A program made the translations under genes and the position numbers. The notes beneath the pieces are model-generated. The model searched no databases and was not told where the DNA came from. It saw nothing but the letters and a program-made list of their open reading frames with translations. Shown here piece by piece: positions 5,882 to 45,657 of a stretch of 64,000 nucleotides of DNA. This DNA is from Thermoanaerobaculia bacterium (GTDB taxonomy: Bacteria; Acidobacteriota; Thermoanaerobaculia; Multivoradales; JAGPDF01), in contig JASNYQ010000001.1 of the NCBI GenBank assembly GCA_048500095.1, positions 246,136 to 310,135 of the forward strand, in the 5' to 3' direction. Numbering within the stretch: position 1 is the stretch's first letter; the number at the start of each line of letters is the position of its first letter.

Positions 5882-6828
5882 GGCCGCGCGACGCCGGCGG
5901 TGCGCTCTGGAGGGCGGTGGCGGAGACGGCGCGGCGCCCCGGCCTCGCGGCCGCCCTGGCCGCCCCGGGCCTGCTCTCCGCCTGGCTCGTCGTGGCCCCC
6001 GCACGCCGCCCACTGGCCCGTGCCCTCGACTTCGCTCCGGATGCCGGCGCCGCCGGGGCGGCCGACCTCGGACTCGCCGCCCCCGGCCTGCTCGCCCCGC
6101 CGGACCTCTCCCTGCTCCTGCACGGCGGCGAGCTCTCCGACCTCGTGCGCGCGCTCGCCGCGCACGCCCTGCCGGCGAGCGCGCTCGCCTGCGCGGCCCT
6201 CCTCGGGCTGCTCCACGGGCCGCTCCAGTGCGCCGGCCTGGATGCCCTGCGGAAGCGCTCGGTCGGCCCCGGGGCGCTGCTCGCCGCCGCCGCGCGCTTC
6301 GCCCTCCCCGCGAGCGCGCTCTCGCTGCTCGCGCTGGCGGGCTACGCCCTCTCCGCCGCCCTCGGCCTGCGCCTCCTCGGCGCGGCGCGCTCGCTGGCCG
6401 GAGACGAGGCACCGAACGCCCTCGGCGTCGCCGCCATCGGCTCGCTGGTCGTCGTGCTGCTCTTCGCGGTCCGCTCGTTGCTCGACATCTCGCGCGCCCG
6501 CCTGGTCGAGCGGGGCCCGGCCGACTGGCTGCGACCCGCGCTCGCGGCGCTCGCGCGTCTGCCGCGGCTCGCACCCGCGCTCGCCCTGCTCTACGTCGCC
6601 TACGGCACGGCGCGGGTCCTCCTGCTGGCAGGGGCCTGGTCGGCGGCCCTGATCGCCACCGGCAGCTGGCTGGGGCTCGCGCTCGCCTTCGCCGTCCAGC
6701 AGGCGCTGGCAGCCGCGGCGGCGGGGCTGCGTCTGGCGCGCCTCCAGGCGGTGCGGCGCCTCCTGCTCCTGGCCGAGGCGCGCTCCGCGCCGCCGGCCTA
6801 CAAGGTCGAGGTCACGGCCGGGCGCTGA
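5878..6828 (+). CDS. Hypothetical polytopic membrane protein
   Basis: Start overlaps the upstream stop (ATGA). Multiple hydrophobic segments. No recognisable family. Confidence 0.4.
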   Translation: MRPRDAGGALWRAVAETARRPGLAAALAAPGLLSAWLVVAPARRPLARALDFAPDAGAAGAADLGLAAPGLLAPPDLSLLLHGGELSDLVRALAAHALPASALACAALLGLLHGPLQCAGLDALRKRSVGPGALLAAAARFALPASALSLLALAGYALSAALGLRLLGAARSLAGDEAPNALGVAAIGSLVVVLLFAVRSLLDISRARLVERGPADWLRPALAALARLPRLAPALALLYVAYGTARVLLLAGAWSAALIATGSWLGLALAFAVQQALAAAAAGLRLARLQAVRRLLLLAEARSAPPAYKVEVTAGR

Positions 6829-7843
6829 GCGGGGGCGCCGCCGCGGCGCCGTCGAGGAAGCCGTGGCGGCGCATCCAGTCGTCGCAGTAGATCGAGCTCA
6901 GGTAGCGCGTGCCCGAATCGCAGAAGATCGTGGCGACGCGCGCCGGGCGGCCCAGCCCCGCGATCACCTGCCGCACTCCCCAGAGCGCGGCACCGCTCGA
7001 ACCGCCGGCGAGGATTCCCTCGCTGCGGGCGAGATCGCGGGCGGCGAGAAACGCCTCCCGGTCGGTGACCTGCAGCATCTCGTCGATGCGCTCGAACTCG
7101 GGGCAGGCGATGACCTCCTCGTCACCCAGACCCTCGAGGAGGTAGCGCCCGGGAGCGCCGTGCCGGCCGGTGCGGAAGTGGTCCGTGAAGACCGAGCCGG
7201 CCACGTCCACCGCCACCACCCGCACGCGCGGGTCCTGCTCCTTGAGGTAGCGCGAGACGCCGGAGACCGTGCCACCGGTGCCGATACCGCAGACGAAGAC
7301 GTCGATCCGGCCGTCCATCTGGCGCCAGATCTCGGGGCCGGTGGTCAGGTAGTGCGCGTCGTTGTTCTCCCGGTTGTTGTGCTGGTCGGGGAAGAAGGCA
7401 CCGGGGATCGACGCCGCGAGCTCCCGCGCCTTGCGGTTGTAGCTCTCCGGGTGCTCGGGCGGCAGGTCGCCGTCGACCAGCACCAGCTCGACCCCCATCG
7501 CCCGCAGGCAGTCGAGCTTCTCCCGGCTGGTCTGGCGGCGCACCACCATCACGCAGCGCAGGCCGTGCTCGACCGCGACCATCGCCAGGCCCATCGCGGT
7601 GTTGCCCGACGAGGCCTCCACGACGACGCCCCCCGGCCGCAGACGGCCGTCGGCCAGCGCCCTCTCGATCATGTGCCGGGCGATCCGGTCCTTCACGCTG
7701 CCCCCCGGGTTGAGGAACTCGAGCTTCGCGTAGACCTCGCCGGAGAAGCCGGGGACCGACCGCCGCAGGCGCACGAGAGGCGTGCCGCCGACGGCGTCCC
7801 CGAGACGCTCGCAGACTCTCTGGTCACTCATCGCCCGCAGCAT
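6812..7843 (-). CDS. cysK: PLP-dependent cysteine synthase / cystathionine beta-synthase family (CysK/CysM-like)
   Basis: LNPGGSVKDRIARHMIERALADG...VEASSGNTAMGLAMVA...GIGTGGTVSGV. Lys-PLP motif SVKDR and the GTGGT loop are present. Start may be 7843 or 7831. Confidence 0.85.
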   Translation of the reverse strand: MLRAMSDQRVCERLGDAVGGTPLVRLRRSVPGFSGEVYAKLEFLNPGGSVKDRIARHMIERALADGRLRPGGVVVEASSGNTAMGLAMVAVEHGLRCVMVVRRQTSREKLDCLRAMGVELVLVDGDLPPEHPESYNRKARELAASIPGAFFPDQHNNRENNDAHYLTTGPEIWRQMDGRIDVFVCGIGTGGTVSGVSRYLKEQDPRVRVVAVDVAGSVFTDHFRTGRHGAPGRYLLEGLGDEEVIACPEFERIDEMLQVTDREAFLAARDLARSEGILAGGSSGAALWGVRQVIAGLGRPARVATIFCDSGTRYLSSIYCDDWMRRHGFLDGAAAAPPLSARP

Positions 7844-38178: not shown

Positions 38179-39056
38179 CCCGAACCACCGCCCTCGCCCG
38201 GCTCGCCCTGCCGCTCGCCGCTCTCCTGGCCGGCCCGGCGCTCCGGGCCGGGGAGGAGAGCGCGGCGGCGCTCGCCCGCGGCGACGCGGCGTGGGCGGGT
38301 CGCGCCGCTGGCCACCGCGGCGGCCGCGCGGCTCCGGAGCCGATCGCCGCCGCGGTCGCCGCCTGCGAGGAGGCGCTCCGTCACGATCCCCAGAGCCTCG
38401 AGGCGCACTGGAAGCTGATGCGCGCCCTCTGGTTCCAGGGCGACTACGCCACCGCCGACGCGGCGGCCCGCCGCGACCTCTTCGCCCGCGGCCGCGAGCT
38501 GGGCGAGCGCGCCAAGCAGCTGCTCGCCGCGCGCGCCGGGGCCGGGAAGGAGCTCGCGAAGCTGCCCCCCGCCGAGCGCGCCCGCCGCCTCGCGGCCGAG
38601 CCCGACGCCGCCCCGGTCCACTTCTGGGCCGCCGTCCACTGGGGGCTCTGGGGGGAGGCGTTCGGCAAGCTGGCGGCGGCGCGGCAGGGGGTGGCGGGGC
38701 GGATCCGCGACGACGCCGAGACCGTCGTGGCCCTCGACGAGCGGTTCGAGCACGCCGGAGGGCTGCGGGTGCTCGGCCGCCTCCACGACCAGGCGCCGCG
38801 GGTGCCGCTGGTGACCGGCTGGATCGACCGGGAGCGGGCCGTCGCGTCGCTGCGGCGCGCCGTGCAGCTCGCGCCGGAGAGCCTCTACAACCGGCTCTAC
38901 CTCGCCGAGGCCCTCCTCGCCCACCGCCCCGCGGCACGCGCCGAGGCCGAGGCGCTGCTCGCGGAAATCCTCGCCCGCCCGCCCGCGCCGGCGGAGCTCG
39001 TCGAGGAGAGCCGGCACCAGGAGCGGGCCCGCGAGCTCCTCGCCGGCCGCGGCTGA
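38175..39056 (+). CDS. Secreted helical/TPR-like hypothetical protein translationally coupled to mmdB
   Basis: GTG overlaps the mmdB stop (GTGA). Signal peptide ALARLALPLAALLAGPALRAG. Helical repeats. Confidence 0.45.
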   Translation: MTRTTALARLALPLAALLAGPALRAGEESAAALARGDAAWAGRAAGHRGGRAAPEPIAAAVAACEEALRHDPQSLEAHWKLMRALWFQGDYATADAAARRDLFARGRELGERAKQLLAARAGAGKELAKLPPAERARRLAAEPDAAPVHFWAAVHWGLWGEAFGKLAAARQGVAGRIRDDAETVVALDERFEHAGGLRVLGRLHDQAPRVPLVTGWIDRERAVASLRRAVQLAPESLYNRLYLAEALLAHRPAARAEAEALLAEILARPPAPAELVEESRHQERARELLAGRG

Positions 39057-39061
39057 CCGCT

Positions 39062-39979
39062 TCAGGCCGGCCGCTGCGCCGCCCGCACGGCGGCCCGCAT
39101 CGCCACCACCAGGCCGAGCACGATGAGCAGGAAGCCCACCCCCTGCACGGGGCGCGGGCGCTCGGCGAGCCAGATCGCGGCGAGGCCGGCGGTGAGGAGC
39201 GGCTGCAGCGTCGTGAAGGCGGCGGCGGTCGAGGGCGAGCTGCGCCGCACGGCCCAGGTGTTGAGGGCGAAGCTCGCCGTGGTGGGGCCGAGGCCGATGT
39301 AGGCGATCCCGGCCACCGCCTCCCGCGAGAGCGCCGTCCACTCGGTTGCCACCAGCCAGGGGAGCGAGATCGCCACCAGGCCGACGCCGCCGAAGAGGAA
39401 CGTCCAGGCGACGACGGTGCGCCAGGGGAGCCGCGCCAGCAGCGGCCGCAGGAGGACCAGGAAGAAGGCGTAGCAGAGGCAGTTGGCGAGGATCAACAGG
39501 TTGCCGATGCTCGCCCGCCAGCCGGTCCCGAGCTGCGTCGGATCGAGGAGCACGAGCGCCCCGGCCGCCGCCAGCGCCACGCCGAGAACCCGCCGGGGGC
39601 CGATCTTCTCCACCCCGAGGAGCGCCCCCGCGGCGAGGGTGAAGACCGGGATCGAGGGCATGAGGATCGAGGCGCTGGTGGCGCTGGTGAAGGAGAGCCC
39701 GAGCAGGAAGAGCCCCTGGTTCGCGGCGATGCCGAGCAGGCCGAGGAGCGCCAGCCGCGGCCAGTCGCGGCGCGCCGGCAGCAGGCGGTCGGTCCAGGCC
39801 GCGTAGGCGAGCAGCAGCGGCGTGGCGATGAGCACCCGGAGGCCGCCCAGGGCGAGCGGCGAGATCTCGCGCAGCACCACCTTCCCCGCCACCGGCAGGG
39901 TCGCGAAGAGGAGCTGCACCAGGAGCAGGACGGCGATCGCGGGGCCGTCGGGCCCGTGGCGGGGAGGGGTGGCCGGCAT
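39062..39979 (-). CDS. DMT-superfamily (EamA-like) transporter
   Basis: 10 TM. Two EamA-like halves. Start chosen at MPATPP (39979). Confidence 0.65.
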   Translation of the reverse strand: MPATPPRHGPDGPAIAVLLLVQLLFATLPVAGKVVLREISPLALGGLRVLIATPLLLAYAAWTDRLLPARRDWPRLALLGLLGIAANQGLFLLGLSFTSATSASILMPSIPVFTLAAGALLGVEKIGPRRVLGVALAAAGALVLLDPTQLGTGWRASIGNLLILANCLCYAFFLVLLRPLLARLPWRTVVAWTFLFGGVGLVAISLPWLVATEWTALSREAVAGIAYIGLGPTTASFALNTWAVRRSSPSTAAAFTTLQPLLTAGLAAIWLAERPRPVQGVGFLLIVLGLVVAMRAAVRAAQRPA

Positions 39980-40061
39980 GGGTCGCGGGCGGCGCAGGGC
40001 TCGCCCCCGGTATGCTCTCACGCCTCGGGCCCCGCGGGGCCCCGGCGGGGAGGACTCGGGG

Positions 40062-40271
40062 ATGCAAGAGAAGAGCGTTCAGGTTCCGGCGATCTCCTGC
40101 GGACACTGCGTGCGCACGATCGAGCGGGAGCTCGGCGAGGTCGAAGGGGTGCGGTCGGTCCGCGCCGACGCGGAGACGAAGCGGGTCGAGGTGGCCTGGG
40201 AGGCGCCGGCCGACTGGCCCGCGATCGCGGCCCTGCTGGCCGAGATCGGCTTCCCGCCGGCCGAGGGCTGA
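40062..40271 (+). CDS. copZ: Heavy-metal-associated copper chaperone CopZ
   Basis: 69 aa. VPAISCGHCVRTIE metal-binding motif. RBS GGGGAGG. Confidence 0.8.
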   Translation: MQEKSVQVPAISCGHCVRTIERELGEVEGVRSVRADAETKRVEVAWEAPADWPAIAALLAEIGFPPAEG

Positions 40272-40277
40272 GGCCGG

Positions 40278-42629
40278 ATGGGCGAGCCGGCGACGAGCCC
40301 ACCCCGCGCGGCCGGCGGCGAAGACGTCCGGACCGAGCTCGCGGTCACCGGGATGACCTGCGCGAACTGCGCGCTCGCGGTGGAGCGCACGCTCCTGCGG
40401 CGCGTGCCGGGGGTGCGGTCGGCGCAGGTGAACCTGGCCACCGAGCGGGCGACGGTGGAGCACGATCCGGCCCTCGCCGGTCGCGGCGATCTGGTCGCCG
40501 CCATCCGCCGGGCCGGCTACGACGTCCTCGACGAGGCGGAGCCGGAGGAGGCCGCCAACCCGGACCGGGAGCGGGAGGCGCGGGCGGCCGAGGCCCGCCG
40601 GGCGCGGCGCAAGCTGGCCGCCGGGCTCGTCTTCACCGCTCCCCTGTTCACGCTGAGCATGGGCCGGGACTTCGGGCTCCTCGGCGCCTGGGCCGCGGCC
40701 GGCTGGGTCCCCTGGCTCTTCTTCGCCCTCGCCACCCCGGTCCAGATCTACCTCGGCGGCGACTTCCTGCTCGGGGGCTGGCGCTCGCTGCGCAACGGCG
40801 TGGCCAACATGGACCTCCTGGTCGCGCTCGGCTCCTTCACCGCCTTCCTCTACAGCGTCGCGGTTGCGGTGGCGCTCTCGCTCGGCCGCCACGAGCTCGG
40901 CCACCACGTCTACTTCGAGACGGCGGCGGTGATCCTCACCCTGATCAAGGCCGGCAAGTACCTGGAGGCCCGGGCGAAGGGGCGCACCAGCGCGGCGCTC
41001 AGGGCGCTGGCCGACCTGCGCCCCCGCACCGCCCGGCTGCTGGAGGGGGACGGCGAGCGCGAGGTCGCGCTGGCCGCCGTACGTCCCGGCGACCGCCTGC
41101 GCGTGCGGCCGGGCGACCAGATCCCCACCGACGGGGTGGTGGTCACCGGGCGCTCGGCGGTCGACGAGAGCCTCCTCACCGGCGAGAGCGTGCCCGTGGA
41201 CAAGGGCCCGGGCGACCGCGTAGTCGGCGGCACCGTGAACCGGGAGGGCCTGCTCACGATGGAGGCGCGGGCGGTCGGCCGGGCGACGGTGCTGGCCCAG
41301 ATCGTCCGGCTGGTCGAGGCGGCCCAGGCCAGCCGGGCCCCGATCCAGAAGCTGGCCGACCGCGTCTCGGCCCTCTTCGTCCCCGCCGTGGTGCTGATCG
41401 CCCTCGGCGCCTTCCTCTTCTGGTGGCTGGTGGCCGGCGCCGGCCTGACGGCGGCGCTGCTGCGGCTGGTGGCGGTGCTCGTCATCGCCTGCCCCTGCGC
41501 CCTCGGGCTCGCCACCCCGACCGCGGTGATGGTCGGGACCGGGCGGGGAGCGGAGGCCGGGATCCTCTTCCGGAGCGCCGAGGCGCTGGAGCTCGCCGGC
41601 GGCCTCCGCACGGTGGTCCTCGACAAGACCGGGACGGTCACCTCCGGCGTGCCGGAGGTCGCAGAGGTCGTCCCCGGGCCCGGGGTTCCGGCCGAGCGGC
41701 TGCTCTCTCTCGCCGCGGCCGCCGAGCGCGGGAGCGAGCACCCGCTGGCCGCGGCGGTGGTGCGCGAGGCGGCCCGGCGCGGCCTCCCCCTCGGCGAGCC
41801 CGAGGCGCTCCGGGCCCACCCGGGCGAGGGGATCGCCGCCAGCGTCGCCGGGGCCGGCGTGGCGGTCGGGAGCGCCCGCTTCCTCGCCGGCCGCGGGATC
41901 GACCTCGCACCGCTCGCCGCGGCGGCCGAGAGACTCGAGAGCGCCGCCCACACCCTCCTCTGGGTCGAGCTGGACGGAGCGCTCGGGGGGCTCCTCGCGG
42001 TCCGCGACGCCGTCCGCCCCGGCGCGGCCGAGGCGGTCGGCGCGCTGCGCGCCCTCGGGCTCGACCTGCTCCTCCTCTCGGGCGACCGCGCTCCGGTGGC
42101 GGAGGCGGTGGCGCGCGAGGTCGGCATTCCGGGCGCGCTGGCCGAGGTCCTCCCCGGCGGCAAGGTGGCCGAGATCGAGCGCCTGCAGCGCGCGGGGCGC
42201 GGCCCGGTGGCGATGGTCGGCGACGGCGTCAACGACGCCCCGGCGCTGGCGCGCGCCGAGGTCGGAATCGCCTTGGCCAGCGGCGCCGACATCGCCCGCG
42301 AGGCGGCCGACGTGACCCTCCTCCACGCCGACCTGCGGGACGTCCCACGCGCCGTCGCCCTCTCGCGCGCGACGCTCCGCACCATCCGGCAGAACCTCTT
42401 CTGGGCCTTCTTCTACAACGTGCTGCTGCTGCCGGTGGCGGCCGGCGCGCTCCACCCGGTCACCGCGCTGCCCGCCGTGCTGCGCGACCTCCACCCCGCG
42501 CTCGCGGCCCTCGCGATGGCCGCGAGCAGCCTCACCGTGGTCGGCAACAGCCTCCGCCTGCGGCGCGCGGAGATCGGCGGGCGGCGGGGAGGCGGAAGGG
42601 GTTACGATCGCCGGGGCACGCGACGATGA
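40278..42629 (+). CDS. copA: Copper-translocating P1B-type ATPase
   Basis: N-terminal HMA ([12 protein letters not shown]), CPC in TM6, DKTGTVT phosphorylation site, [10 protein letters not shown]. Confidence 0.9.
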
Positions 42630-43582
42630 GACCTCTGCGGCTGTCGGAGCACGGCCTCGAGCCGGTAGCGGTGGAGGACCTCCCCCGCCTGCTGGCCGAC
42701 GGCTCGTCCCGGCTCTGGGTCGACATCACGGGCCCGGAGGCCTCCCACCTCGAGGTCATGGAGCGGCTCTTCCGCTTCCACCCCCTCGCCATCGAGGACA
42801 CGCGCAACCAGCGGCAGCGCCCGAAGGCCGAGGAGTACGACGACCACCTCTTCCTCATCCTGAACCCGGCGACTGCGGGGCTCGAGGCCGACGAGACCTT
42901 CCGCGAGCTCGACGTCTTCGTCGCCGCGCGGCTCCTCGTCACCGTCCACCCGGGCGACGAGCCGGTGATCGCCGACGCCGAGCGGCGGCTCTCGCGGTGG
43001 GGTAACGGCGCGGAGCCGAGCGTCGGCCACCTGCTCTACGTCCTCCTCGACAGCGTCGTCGACACCTACTTCCCGCTCCTCGACGCGATCGATGCCGACC
43101 TCTCGGAGGTCGAGGACGAGGTGCTCGCCGAGCCGCAACCGGACCTCCTGGCGCGCCTCGTCGCCCTCAAGCGCAAGCTGGTCGACATCCGCCGCGTCGT
43201 CGCCCCGCAGCGGGAGATGCTCCACGTGCTCCTCCGGCAGGACCAGCCGCTGCTCGACGCCGCGGCCCTCCGCTACCAGTTCCGCGACGTCTACGACCAC
43301 CTGCTGCGGGTCACCGACGCCGCCGACACCTTCCGCGACCTGCTCACCAGCCTCGTGGACCTCTACATGTCGTCGGTCTCGAACCGCCTGAACCGCGTCG
43401 TGAACCGCCTGACGCGCGTCACCGTGGTGATCGGCGCGCTGGCCGTCGTCACCGGCTTCTACGGCATGAACTTCGAGCGCACCTGGCCGCCGTTCGGGAC
43501 GCCGTGGGGCACGGGGTTCGCGCTGCTGGCGATGGCGGGGGTGGCCGGGCTCCTGCTCCGGATCTTCCGCCGGGACCGCTGA
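42626..43582 (+). CDS. corA: CorA-family divalent metal ion transporter
   Basis: ATGA overlap with the copA stop. C-terminal two TM with YGMNFE signature. Confidence 0.8.
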
Positions 43583-43585
43583 GCG

Positions 43586-44122
43586 ATGCCCGCGAGACTC
43601 CGCGCCGCCGCCGTCCGGAGCCCGCGCCGCGCCCGCACCGCCCTTCTCCTCTCCCTCCTGGGCCTCCTCGGCCCGCTCGGATTCGGCGGCGGCTGCGCCG
43701 CGCCGCCGCCCGCGGGACCGCCGGCGGCGGCTTCCGCGCGCCACGACCTCTCGCGCGACGAGGCGCTCGGCGGGCACACCCTCGCCCGCCACGTCGGGCT
43801 CTCCGAACAGGAGCTGCGCCGGCGCCTGGCGCGGGAGCGCGGTCTCGCCGCCGCCTCCACCTTTCCCGACCGGGAGACCGCCGAGCGGGCCGTGGCGCAG
43901 GCGCTCGCCGCCCACGCGGAGCGGATCGAGCGCTGGCAGCGCCGGGGCCCGCAGCGGGCGAACCTCGCGCTCGACCTCCCCGCGCGGCCCGGAGCGAGTT
44001 GGGGCGAGACGCTCCGCCGGGGAGACCGCCGGCCGCGCCCGGCGACCCGCGCGCGCGTCGTGCTGCGGGCGCGGGGCGACGCCTTCTTCGTGCTCACCGC
44101 CTATCCGACGGAGGGCCCATGA
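43586..44122 (+). CDS. Lipoprotein carrying an RNase A-superfamily (CdiA-CT-like) nuclease domain
   Basis: Lipobox LGFGGGCAAP. GGHTLARHVGLSEQELRRRLARE...ASTFPDRETAERAVAQAL...FFVLTAYP. The His...Arg...Thr-x-Tyr arrangement resembles bacterial RNase A-like toxin domains. Family assignment is from memory of motifs and needs an HMM check. Confidence 0.5.
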   Translation: MPARLRAAAVRSPRRARTALLLSLLGLLGPLGFGGGCAAPPPAGPPAAASARHDLSRDEALGGHTLARHVGLSEQELRRRLARERGLAAASTFPDRETAERAVAQALAAHAERIERWQRRGPQRANLALDLPARPGASWGETLRRGDRRPRPATRARVVLRARGDAFFVLTAYPTEGP

Positions 44123-44496
44123 ACAGACAGCCACCCCTGCCAGCCGAAGATCGGGACGCCTCCGCGCTCGACCGCATCGAGCAGGAGTTGACCGCCGAGA
44201 CGTTCCCCGGCCTCGCCGCCTTCGCAGCCGGCTATCTCCACGAGGACCTCGAGCCCGAGCACGGCTCGGCCGCCGGCGCCGCCTGGGCGTTCTGCGAGGA
44301 GGCCGACCTGGAGGAGGTCGCCCAGGCCGCGCGCGGCTGGGAGCTGCTCGAGCTCGTCGGGCGCGAGCGCGGGACCGCCGCCGCGGCGCTGCTCCTGGTC
44401 GGCCGCTTCGGCTCCGCCTGGCAGCCCGCGGAGCCGGGCGACCTCGAGCGGGTCGGCGTCGAGCTGCGCCGGGGGCTCGAAGGCTGGGACGAGTAG
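44119..44496 (+). CDS. Acidic small protein, putative immunity/inhibitor partner of the upstream RNase
   Basis: ATGA overlap with the upstream stop. Highly acidic (D/E-rich) 125 aa, as typical for nuclease inhibitors. No family assigned. Confidence 0.4.
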   Translation: MNRQPPLPAEDRDASALDRIEQELTAETFPGLAAFAAGYLHEDLEPEHGSAAGAAWAFCEEADLEEVAQAARGWELLELVGRERGTAAAALLLVGRFGSAWQPAEPGDLERVGVELRRGLEGWDE

Positions 44497-44505
44497 ACCG
44501 CCTCT

Positions 44506-45657
44506 TCAGGCCGGACGGCGCTCGAGGACGACCAGCGTGAGGTCGTCGGCGAGCCCCTCCTCGGCCCGCCGCCGCCCGTCGAACGCCGCGAGGATGCGCC
44601 GGTGCAGCTCGGCGGCGCCGCCGCCCTGTCGGGCCAGCACGCGCAGGCGCTCGAAGCCGAACGCCTCGCCGTCGCTGCCGAGCCCCTCGGGCAGCCCGTC
44701 GCTGTAGAGCACCAGGAGGTCCCCGGGAGCGATCCGCACCGACTCGGTGGCGAGGTCGAGGTCGGTGCGCACGCCGAGTGGCAGGCCACCCCGGCCCAAC
44801 TCCTCGAGGTCTCCCGATGCCCGTCGCAGGAGCGGGAACGGGTGCCCGGCGCCCACGTACTCGAGCTCGCCGGTCGCCGGGTCGAGGAGGCCGAAGAAGA
44901 GGCTCATGAAGGCCCGCGCGCCACCGGTGCGCAGCACCACGCGGTGCACCGCCCGCGCCACCGACGGCGGGGCGGGATCGAGCTCGATGGCGGTGTGGAT
45001 GGCGGCGCTGGCGAGCGCCATGACGAGGCCGGCCGCCATCCCGTGGCCGCTCGCGTCGCCGGCCACGACGGCGATCCGGCCGCCGGCCACGGGCAGGAAG
45101 GCGTAGTAGTCGCCGCCGACCTCGTTCGCCGTGCGGTAGCCGTGCGCCACCGACCAGCCCGGGATCTCCACCTCCCCCGCCGGCAGGAGCTGGCGCTGCA
45201 CGCCGCGCGCGACCTCCAGCTCGTCGCGCACCAGCACGCGGTCCACCAGCTCCATCGCCAGCAGGTAGACGAGGGCGAGGAGGCTCACGAAGTACCAGAA
45301 CCCCGAGGCGTTGGCCTCCAGGTGGACGCCTCCCGCCCCCGCGACCGTGAAACGGCTGCCCGTCACGCCGAGGATCCCGGCCAGCAGCGCGAACGCGAAG
45401 AGCAGCCGTCGCGGTGGGGAGAGCTTGTAGGAGAGGCCGAGGAAGACGGTCCGCGCGCGGTGCAGGAAGCGGCGGATCCGCCCGCGCGGCTCCGGCCGGT
45501 CCGCCTGGTCGCGCGCCAGCACGGCGTAGGTCTGCGCCGCGTCCCGGGCGAAGAGGCGCCGGACGTCCTCCTGCCGGAGGCCCGCGGTGTAGTCGCGGAC
45601 GAACTGCTCGATCTGCCGGAAGCGGCCCGGCCCGGTGCGTGGCTTCGCTCTCCCCAC
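44506..45657 (-). CDS. Membrane-anchored PP2C-family (SpoIIE/RsbU-like) serine phosphatase
   Basis: Two N-terminal TM helices, then RQLLPAGEVEIPGWSVAHGYRTANEVGGDYY...VVAGDASGHGMAAGLVMA...VLYSDGL. GTG start after GAGGAGGAG. Confidence 0.75.
   Translation of the reverse strand: MGRAKPRTGPGRFRQIEQFVRDYTAGLRQEDVRRLFARDAAQTYAVLARDQADRPEPRGRIRRFLHRARTVFLGLSYKLSPPRRLLFAFALLAGILGVTGSRFTVAGAGGVHLEANASGFWYFVSLLALVYLLAMELVDRVLVRDELEVARGVQRQLLPAGEVEIPGWSVAHGYRTANEVGGDYYAFLPVAGGRIAVVAGDASGHGMAAGLVMALASAAIHTAIELDPAPPSVARAVHRVVLRTGGARAFMSLFFGLLDPATGELEYVGAGHPFPLLRRASGDLEELGRGGLPLGVRTDLDLATESVRIAPGDLLVLYSDGLPEGLGSDGEAFGFERLRVLARQGGGAAELHRRILAAFDGRRRAEEGLADDLTLVVLERRPA

Follow-up and report, generated by a model that had tools for sequence, protein, structure and literature searches.

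We describe a conserved pair of genes, encoding a ribonuclease of the RNase A fold and its putative inhibitor, in a 64,000-nucleotide stretch of DNA from a Thermoanaerobaculia bacterium (contig JASNYQ010000001.1; hereafter, the window). The first gene encodes a protein that is predicted to be exported and tethered to a membrane. The second, whose start overlaps the stop codon of the first, encodes a small acidic protein of the CdiI_2 family. Each protein matches one chain of 5E3E, the toxin/immunity complex of the contact-dependent growth inhibition (CDI) system of Yersinia kristensenii, and the pair is conserved. It follows that both halves of the Y. kristensenii complex have their counterparts here, conserved as a cognate pair. 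Although homologous to CdiA-CT/CdiI of that bacterium (below, CdiA-CT Ykris and CdiI Ykris), the pair is not a CDI system. In the window, the pair lies directly behind copZ, copA and corA, which are its neighbours and not its conserved partners; the conserved unit is an autonomous bicistron of the RNase and immunity genes. Identical proteins have been deposited from metagenome-assembled genomes (MAGs) of Thermoanaerobaculia (Acidobacteriota), and the RNase and the downstream protein are both named ‘hypothetical protein’ in NCBI. The features of the pair are as follows.

43586-44122, + strand: RNase gene; 178 amino acid residues (aa), predicted exported RNase A-like ribonuclease, the enzyme half of the pair
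43586-43696, + strand: N-terminal export signal, residues 1-37, read from the sequence; Arg-rich n-region, h-region and lipobox-like end
43772-44107, + strand: RNase A-fold catalytic domain, residues 63-174, the span of the Pfam match
43790-43792 (H69), 43823-43825 (R80), 44096-44098 (T171) and 44102-44104 (Y173), + strand: predicted catalytic residues, the equivalents of His175, Arg186, Thr276 and Tyr278 of CdiA-CT Ykris
44119-44496, + strand: immunity gene; 125 aa, predicted cytoplasmic acidic inhibitor, CdiI_2 family

The enzyme and its partner

The RNase matches PF18431 (RNAse_A_bac) with a score of 98.2 bits (cut-off 27; E 6.9e-28), and the match covers positions 1-113 of the 113 in the profile. 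A profile built from the RNase and 21 homologues matched a single real PDB sequence, 5e3e_B (E 3.5e-22), the chain of 5E3E that represents the Y. kristensenii CdiA-CT nuclease. The AlphaFold2 (AF2) model of the RNase has a mean pLDDT of 86, with the domain mostly above 92. In Foldseek, the model matches 5e3e_B with an E-value of 1e-9, a TM(target) of 0.87, an rmsd of 2.3 Å and 30% identity, and no other PDB entry comes near 5e3e_B in that search. A preliminary description of the locus had recognized an RNase A-like domain of the CdiA-CT type, with a His/Arg...Thr-x-Tyr arrangement, and had proposed a hidden Markov model search of 43586-44122 and a structure prediction of the RNase alone as checks. 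The motifs it quoted are present in the translation, and both the full-length profile match and the RNase A-like fold bear the identification out.

Mutagenesis has shown that His175, Arg186, Thr276 and Tyr278 of CdiA-CT Ykris matter for activity (Batot et al. 2017, PMC5435912). We fixed the positions of these residues by means of the mutagenesis primer sequences in that paper and the profile alignment to 5e3e_B. The equivalents in the window, H69, R80, T171 and Y173, are invariant in the 22 aligned sequences and in a set of 77. Since the catalytic residues are all conserved, the window RNase is predicted to be catalytically active. It is strongly basic, with a pI of 11.6-11.8. The G+C content by codon position fits the frames given above, at 0.84/0.66/0.92 for the RNase gene and 0.83/0.51/0.94 for the immunity gene.

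The 125-aa protein is acidic, with a pI of 4.32 and 26 D+E against 10 K+R; the median pI of the family is 4.8. Taken alone, the protein scores 18.8 bits against PF18593 (CdiI_2), below the cut-off of 26.7, and as a single query it finds just five word-based homologues. Membership in CdiI_2 was settled with a profile built from the neighbours of the RNase homologues. All 43 aligned immunity homologues match PF18593, the best with an E-value of 1.6e-13, and the family profile matches the CdiI chain 5e3e_A with an E-value of 4.9e-6. The AF2 model is all-helical, with seven helices and a pLDDT of 91. Its best PDB match is 5e3e_A/C, with a probability of 0.99 and a TM(target) of 0.63-0.65, the E-value of this match being only 0.23. 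Many family members carry the NCBI name ‘contact-dependent growth inhibition system immunity protein’. Two CdiI_2-family proteins, P0138 and P0160, have evidently wrong JGI names (‘RNA-splicing ligase RtcB’ and ‘predicted ArsR family transcriptional regulator’). The N-termini of the immunity proteins are hydrophilic, and the protein is therefore taken to be cytoplasmic. From these similarities, the 125-aa protein is the likely CdiI_2-type partner of the RNase, which it would inhibit by binding.

Conservation of the pair was surveyed with one genome per GTDB species, scanned for the RNase; 171 genomes were positive, and 80 loci, mostly from Acidobacteriota, were kept. With the window’s 125-aa protein as the tblastn query, an immunity homologue was found directly downstream of the RNase in 70 of the 80 loci at E ≤ 1e-3. 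The remaining ten consist of six with weak matches at the expected position, two without room downstream and two with no match. That is, when weak matches are counted, 76 of the 78 loci with room for one have an immunity homologue behind the RNase. The preliminary description had expected an acidic nuclease inhibitor here and had held that a lack of conservation of this frame would speak against it; the frame belongs to CdiI_2 and is conserved beside the RNase homologues. The start of the immunity gene overlaps the RNase stop codon by four nt (ATGA or GTGA) in 79 of 85 pairs with a callable downstream open reading frame (ORF). In the window, the ATGA overlap is at 44119-44122. Pairwise identities of the RNase and immunity proteins are strongly correlated across 77 loci (Mantel r 0.845, with 0 of 999 permutations as high), and the immunity protein diverges faster, with a mean pairwise identity of 39% vs 60% for the RNase. 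One locus was recovered per genome in the survey, and the window contains no extra or orphan immunity copies. The pair is present in at least 171 species-level genomes and is mostly a single-locus feature of many Acidobacteriota.

Two observations on the survey may be added. At L093, on a related Thermoanaerobaculia contig, the gene after the RNase (6603-7232) is called as a 209-aa protein without a Pfam match; tblastn still gives a 97-aa immunity-like stretch of 42% identity, starting from 6597. Either the start or frame of the 209-aa call is wrong, or the immunity protein at this locus is extended or fused. Six loci (L012, L016, L027, L028, L048 and L057) labelled as Limnocylindrales, Verrucomicrobiia, Baltobacteraceae, Dormiibacterota, Chloroflexia or Dongiaceae contain Acidoferrum-like pairs, several of them with the same divergent activator gene (see below). 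Such labels point to horizontal transfer or to mis-binned MAG contigs.

Predicted export of the enzyme and comparison with known systems

The h-region of the RNase signal is a hydrophobic core of 15 residues, ALLLSLLGLLGPLGF, with a hydrophobicity of 2.27 over 12 residues. It leads to a lipobox-like G-F-G-G-G-C37, the Cys37 codon (tgc) being at 43694-43696, and a Pro/Ala-rich tether follows, up to about residue 50. By our own reading, GFGGG-C37 matches the residue classes of the permissive PROSITE-type rule, with the Cys two residues past the position limit. In P0002, P0003 and P0004, the three closest homologues that cover the N-terminus, the aligned Cys column belongs to a canonical L-G-G-C or L-G-A-C. 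The earlier assignment of the protein as a lipobox-containing lipoprotein is accordingly retained in part: the N-terminus is signal-like and its Cys is aligned with canonical lipoboxes, but the lipobox of the window is itself atypical. A hydrophobic segment near the N-terminus is present in 113 of 121 family members. A lipobox-like Cys occurs in about half of the family, and many of the others show a longer, anchor-like helix without Cys. Judging from these N-termini, the theme of the family would be an extracytoplasmic, membrane-tethered nuclease, with predicted export and lipidation. The anchor is probably a lipid here and may be an uncleaved helix in some relatives. If the Acidobacteriota are diderm, as we take them to be, the anchor would either be exposed to the periplasm or lie in the outer membrane. 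Export by twin-arginine translocation was considered and rejected: the n-region, SPRRARTALL, misfits S/T-R-R-x-F-L-K, and the relatives, inspected by eye, have no consistent twin-arginine.

The translation of the RNase contains no VENN motif, filament, Rhs, PAAR, LXG or other delivery module, the nuclease domain extending from residue 63 of 178. This agrees with the preliminary description, which had noted no CdiA, Rhs or type VI secretion delivery domain. The best 150 relatives in a library of 1.84 billion proteins are all 102-285 aa long, with the domain C-terminal; clusters at 50% identity in that library number 2818 at E ≤ 1e-3 and 177 at E ≤ 1e-30. No CdiB gene is adjacent to the pair, which is flanked in the window by corA on the upstream side and by SpoIIE and PGI on the downstream side. 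Among the neighbour genes of the annotated syntenic and other loci, none carries a secretion-system or mobile-element Pfam family, and a tblastn search of plasmids with the RNase domain gave no match.

The closest known system is CdiA-CT/CdiI of Y. kristensenii ATCC 33638 (5E3E, PMC5435912). Both partners are homologous to those of the window, the catalytic residues are kept and the immunity gene is immediately downstream. Unlike CdiA-CT/CdiI, the window pair lacks the CdiA filament, the VENN motif, a domain for entry into the cytoplasm and CdiB, and its nuclease stands alone, as a protein of 178 aa with its own signal and lipobox-like sequence. CDI toxins are swapped between strains, whereas the window pair appears to be inherited vertically, with low diversification. 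The pair also differs from the polymorphic toxin systems (Zhang et al. 2012), whose toxin-immunity modules diversify from strain to strain or exchange cassettes and often have orphan copies: its divergence tracks the flanking genes in the syntenic relatives, and no extra copies are found in the window.

Proteins of the same kind are found in Bacillus. From B. cereus and B. anthracis, Batot et al. (2017, PMC5435912) described RNase A-like lipoproteins that are clade-specific and have probable immunity genes. Like the window RNase, these proteins are short, with a signal or lipobox followed by a PF18431 domain, and have an immunity gene, little variation and no delivery domain. The window RNase belongs to a different clade, hosted by Acidobacteriota, part of which has a non-lipobox anchor. 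A stand-alone lipoprotein RNase with an immunity partner is therefore not new: the Bacillus precedent (PMC5435912) and the NCBIfam model NF041883 (RNase_A_lipo) already exist. NF041883, named ‘RNase A-like domain-containing lipoprotein’, possibly represents the Bacillus proteins; the window RNase scores 46.8 bits against it (cut-off 200), in a partial match over residues 62-121, and so falls outside this named family, although it is a protein of the same kind.

In barnase/barstar of Bacillus amyloliquefaciens, and in RNase Sa-type enzymes with barstar-like inhibitors, the RNase is secreted and a small acidic cytoplasmic inhibitor protects the producer. The logic that we propose below is like that of barnase/barstar, with the inhibitor blocking the active site. 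The folds and families, however, are unrelated, and barnase is released, whereas the window enzyme is predicted to be membrane-tethered. Ribocin (RbcN, PA14_21120) of Pseudomonas aeruginosa, as presented in the available extracts of a 2026 article (PMC13189344), is likewise a stand-alone RNase A fold with a periplasmic signal peptide and a His...Thr-x-Tyr-type site. According to the same extracts, Ribocin, unlike the window RNase, has no Pfam domain, is ~15% identical to CdiA-CT Ykris, cleaves helix 69 of eukaryotic rRNA and is a virulence factor. No immunity partner is mentioned in them, and ‘immunity’ there means host immunity only.

The copper and CorA genes upstream

The pair is preceded in the window by three genes, as follows.

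40062-40271, + strand: copZ; 69 aa, heavy-metal-associated (HMA) copper chaperone with a C-G-H-C motif; PF00403 HMA domain, E 1.4e-12
40278-42629, + strand: copA; 783 aa, copper-exporting ATPase of the P1B type; HMA domain at the N-terminus, CPC motif read from the translation
42626-43582, + strand: corA; 318-aa CorA Mg2+/Co2+ channel with a YGMNF motif; PF01544, E 6.3e-68

CopA matches the Pfam family E1-E2_ATPase (E 2e-58) along with the Hydrolase (HAD) and HMA domains, and scores 567 bits against the copper P-type ATPase model TIGR01511, whose cut-off is 397. CopZ scores 54.6 bits against TIGR00003, below the cut-off of 62. A P1B-1 ATPase with a CPC motif next to an HMA chaperone identifies a copZ-copA copper efflux operon. 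CorA is just above the cut-off of TIGR00383 (209.9 bits, cut-off 200.75), and the protein identical to it in NCBI is named ‘magnesium/cobalt transporter CorA’.

The order copZ-copA-corA-RNase-immunity is head to tail on the + strand, with small gaps or overlaps, in a window of ~74% G+C. The gap between copZ and copA is 6 nt, copA and corA share an ATGA overlap at 42626-42629, and the corA stop codon (43580-43582) is separated from the RNase ATG at 43586 by 3 nt. The order, coordinates, strand and ATGA overlaps given in the preliminary description were all confirmed in the sequence. Its distance of 4 nt from the corA stop to the RNase start is right in that the ATG begins 4 nt after the stop, but only 3 nt lie between them. 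Promoters and terminators were sought in 39000-45000. No sigma-70-like sites were found, in a scan that is uninformative at 75% G+C; the one terminator-like site lies within copA, no more than in shuffled sequence, and there is none between the genes. An Rfam scan of the whole window gave no match, hence no riboswitch or leader that would account for regulation. The pair is probably co-transcribed with copZ-copA-corA in this lineage.

To our knowledge, a CorA channel within a copZ-copA operon is not a classical arrangement. CorA with a GMN motif directly behind the copper P1B ATPase is found in the window and also at L081 (3752-4708) and L087 (7044-7997), and so is conserved in the lineage; the copA/corA junction is an ATGA overlap in the window and L081 and a 45-nt gap in L087. 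An EamA-family transporter gene (39062-40021, - strand) lies divergently between OadB/unknown genes and copZ in the window and is also found in L001 and L081. L087 has no EamA gene at that position, and its upstream genes run co-directionally into copZ, a small rearrangement at the 5′ end of the operon.

The preliminary description had hinted that the extension of a metal-homeostasis operon by the pair is meaningful and had proposed a survey of whether homologues of the RNase are associated with copA or corA. For the most part, they are not. A copZ, copA or corA homologue within 8 kb of the RNase was found by tblastn in just one of the 80 species-level loci, L001, which is the closest relative among them (69% RNase identity). 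Beyond L001, the association is confined to close metagenomic relatives. The contigs of P0002, P0004 and P0018, with RNase identities of 86%, 71% and 61%, repeat the five-gene order and the 3-nt spacing between corA and the RNase gene, and all metagenomic relatives with the window arrangement have at least 61% RNase identity. These same contigs share the flanks of the window, with EamA or OadB upstream and SpoIIE, PGI, NDK, AhpC and SucD downstream. In one syntenic comparison, the identities of the RNase and immunity proteins are 87/82%, against 89/92/82/91% for copA/corA/PGI/SpoIIE; in a second, they are 61/54%, against 70/64/66/66%. Because the relatives share both flanks and the identities track those of the neighbours, the shared arrangement is ordinary vertical synteny; divergence in step with flanking housekeeping genes suggests vertical inheritance of the pair. 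The five other annotated contexts of the pair, in distant loci, are unrelated to metals:

SUI1 and an ABC ATPase
a sigma-54 activator
aldehyde dehydrogenase and CN-hydrolase
a PAS kinase and MgtC
NDK and AhpC, without copA or corA (L093, the related Thermoanaerobaculia locus)

In the distant loci, the pair usually stands behind an intergenic gap or a divergently oriented gene. Taken together, these observations point to a metal link that is most likely incidental and specific to the lineage.

A divergent ORF of ~720 aa lies just upstream of the pair in 34 of the 80 loci (among L002-L080; e.g., L013:5647-7911 and L060:5541-7703). It is annotated only in the metagenomic locus L090 (3711-6017), with GAF-GAF-Sigma54_activat domains. 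Regulation of the pair by sigma-54 was considered and rejected. A TGGCAC-N5-TTGCA promoter, sought in as much as 700 nt preceding the RNase match, gave best scores of at most 7 of 11 bases at inconsistent positions, that is, no convincing -24/-12 promoter; the divergent activator probably reflects synteny within Acidoferrales.

A proposed role and its alternatives

We propose the following explanation for the pair. The first gene would produce a metal-independent endoribonuclease of the RNase A fold, which its N-terminal signal directs out of the cytoplasm and which remains attached to a membrane. The second would produce an acidic cytoplasmic inhibitor of the CdiI_2 type, made in step with the enzyme and covering its active site, as CdiI Ykris blocks the active site of its nuclease (PMC5435912). 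The inhibitor would shield the producer’s RNA from enzyme molecules that have folded ahead of export or gone to the wrong place, and the tight translational coupling would ensure that inhibitor is present whenever enzyme is made. Outside the cytoplasm, the RNase would degrade environmental or periplasmic RNA for nutrient scavenging. The adjacency to corA would be an accident of gene order in this Thermoanaerobaculia lineage, without functional coupling. RNA scavenging or turnover outside the cytoplasm is, in our view, the most likely role. Batot et al. (2017, PMC5435912) proposed RNA scavenging for the Bacillus lipoprotein homologues, arguing that the anchor should preclude transfer and that there is little diversification. 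The explanation as a whole, with tethered enzyme, cytoplasmic inhibitor, RNA scavenging and incidental metal adjacency, seems to us slightly more probable than not.

Several points weigh against this explanation. A near-universal immunity gene is equally expected of an antagonistic toxin, and an enzyme exported by Sec has no strict need of an inhibitor in the cytoplasm. No recurrent nucleoside or phosphate-uptake genes, which would favour scavenging, were found beside the pair. The atypical lipobox of the window lacks Leu at position -3 and does not fit the strict pattern [LVI][ASTVI][GAS]C. Finally, the 3-nt spacing between corA and the RNase gene is kept down to 61% identity, and some selective value of co-expression is possible.

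In the main rival, the pair is an interbacterial toxin-immunity system without a fused delivery domain. The lipoprotein RNase would be moved between cells by outer-membrane vesicles or outer-membrane exchange, as with the SitA/SitI lipoprotein toxins of myxobacteria, and kin that receive it would be protected by the immunity protein. The two proteins share their descent with a genuine CDI toxin/immunity pair, and it is the near-universal retention of a cytoplasmic immunity protein, expected if the RNase reaches the cytoplasm from outside, that keeps this rival alive. The faster evolution of the immunity protein is also in its favour. SitA toxins are polymorphic and modular, with entry domains, occur in multiple copies and depend on TraAB outer-membrane exchange, and none of these features is seen for the window pair. 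Lipoprotein toxins encoded alongside a cytoplasmic immunity protein have a precedent in SitA/SitI of Myxococcus xanthus (PMC5562445, PMC8546572). Against antagonism, the RNase has no translocation or entry domain, only a tether of ~12-25 residues joins the Cys to the nuclease, and many family members have the non-lipobox anchor helix. One locus was recovered per genome, without extra or orphan immunity copies in the window; divergence tracks the flanks in syntenic relatives, without the strain-level hypervariability typical of competition toxins; and no mobile-element Pfam family is found among the neighbour genes. On balance, we judge this rival possible, if doubtful. A more elaborate version seems improbable to us: a delivery-domain-free antagonistic system spread across the Acidobacteriota, acting through vesicles or outer-membrane contact with kin-defining immunity, and controlled here by the metal operon so that metal stress triggers the RNase.

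It is very unlikely that the pair works as a component of the copZ-copA-corA operon, under joint control by copper or magnesium status and with a role in metal stress. The case for such a role rests on the tight junctions (3 nt between corA and the RNase gene, ATGA overlaps elsewhere), on the lack of a terminator-like site between the genes, in a scan of little power at 75% G+C, and on the five-gene order and spacing being kept to 61% RNase identity. It is opposed by the single positive locus among the 80, by the other contexts without a metal connection, by L093, which keeps NDK and AhpC downstream without copA and corA, and by the shared flanks that mark the arrangement as ordinary synteny. 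In addition, the RNase activity of CdiA-CT Ykris needs no added divalent cation (PMC5435912). Least credible is an intracellular toxin-antitoxin or abortive-infection module, with the RNase bound to the membrane on its cytoplasmic side and freed on loss of a labile inhibitor: the toxin-then-inhibitor gene order, the tight coupling with a 4-nt overlap and the small, acidic inhibitor would suit it, but no defence-island or phage-related Pfam family is found among the neighbours (the PADLOC library was not searched), and we reject a cytoplasmic module as unlikely on the signal-peptide architecture, whose positive n-region, h-region, lipobox Cys in about half of the family and Pro/Ala-rich tether predict an extracytoplasmic domain.

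The pair is of a kind already described, and no new principle is involved. What is new is modest: a large, Acidobacteriota-centred RNase clade whose partner is of the CdiI_2 family, a 4-nt gene overlap found in nearly all pairs, and one lineage in which the pair is appended to a copper/CorA operon. The practical gain is in annotation, as two ‘hypothetical protein’ genes of a Thermoanaerobaculia MAG can be named with confidence, and the suggested link between an RNase toxin and metal homeostasis is removed. The pair also offers a bacterial enzyme of the RNase A fold that is tractable and comes with its own natural inhibitor protein. Were the antagonistic, metal-controlled reading true, it would mean both a new regulatory link and a new route by which nuclease toxins are transferred in a major phylum of the soil. 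If, as we favour, the enzyme scavenges extracellular RNA, the pair would be one means by which abundant soil oligotrophs recycle the phosphorus and nitrogen of nucleic acids.

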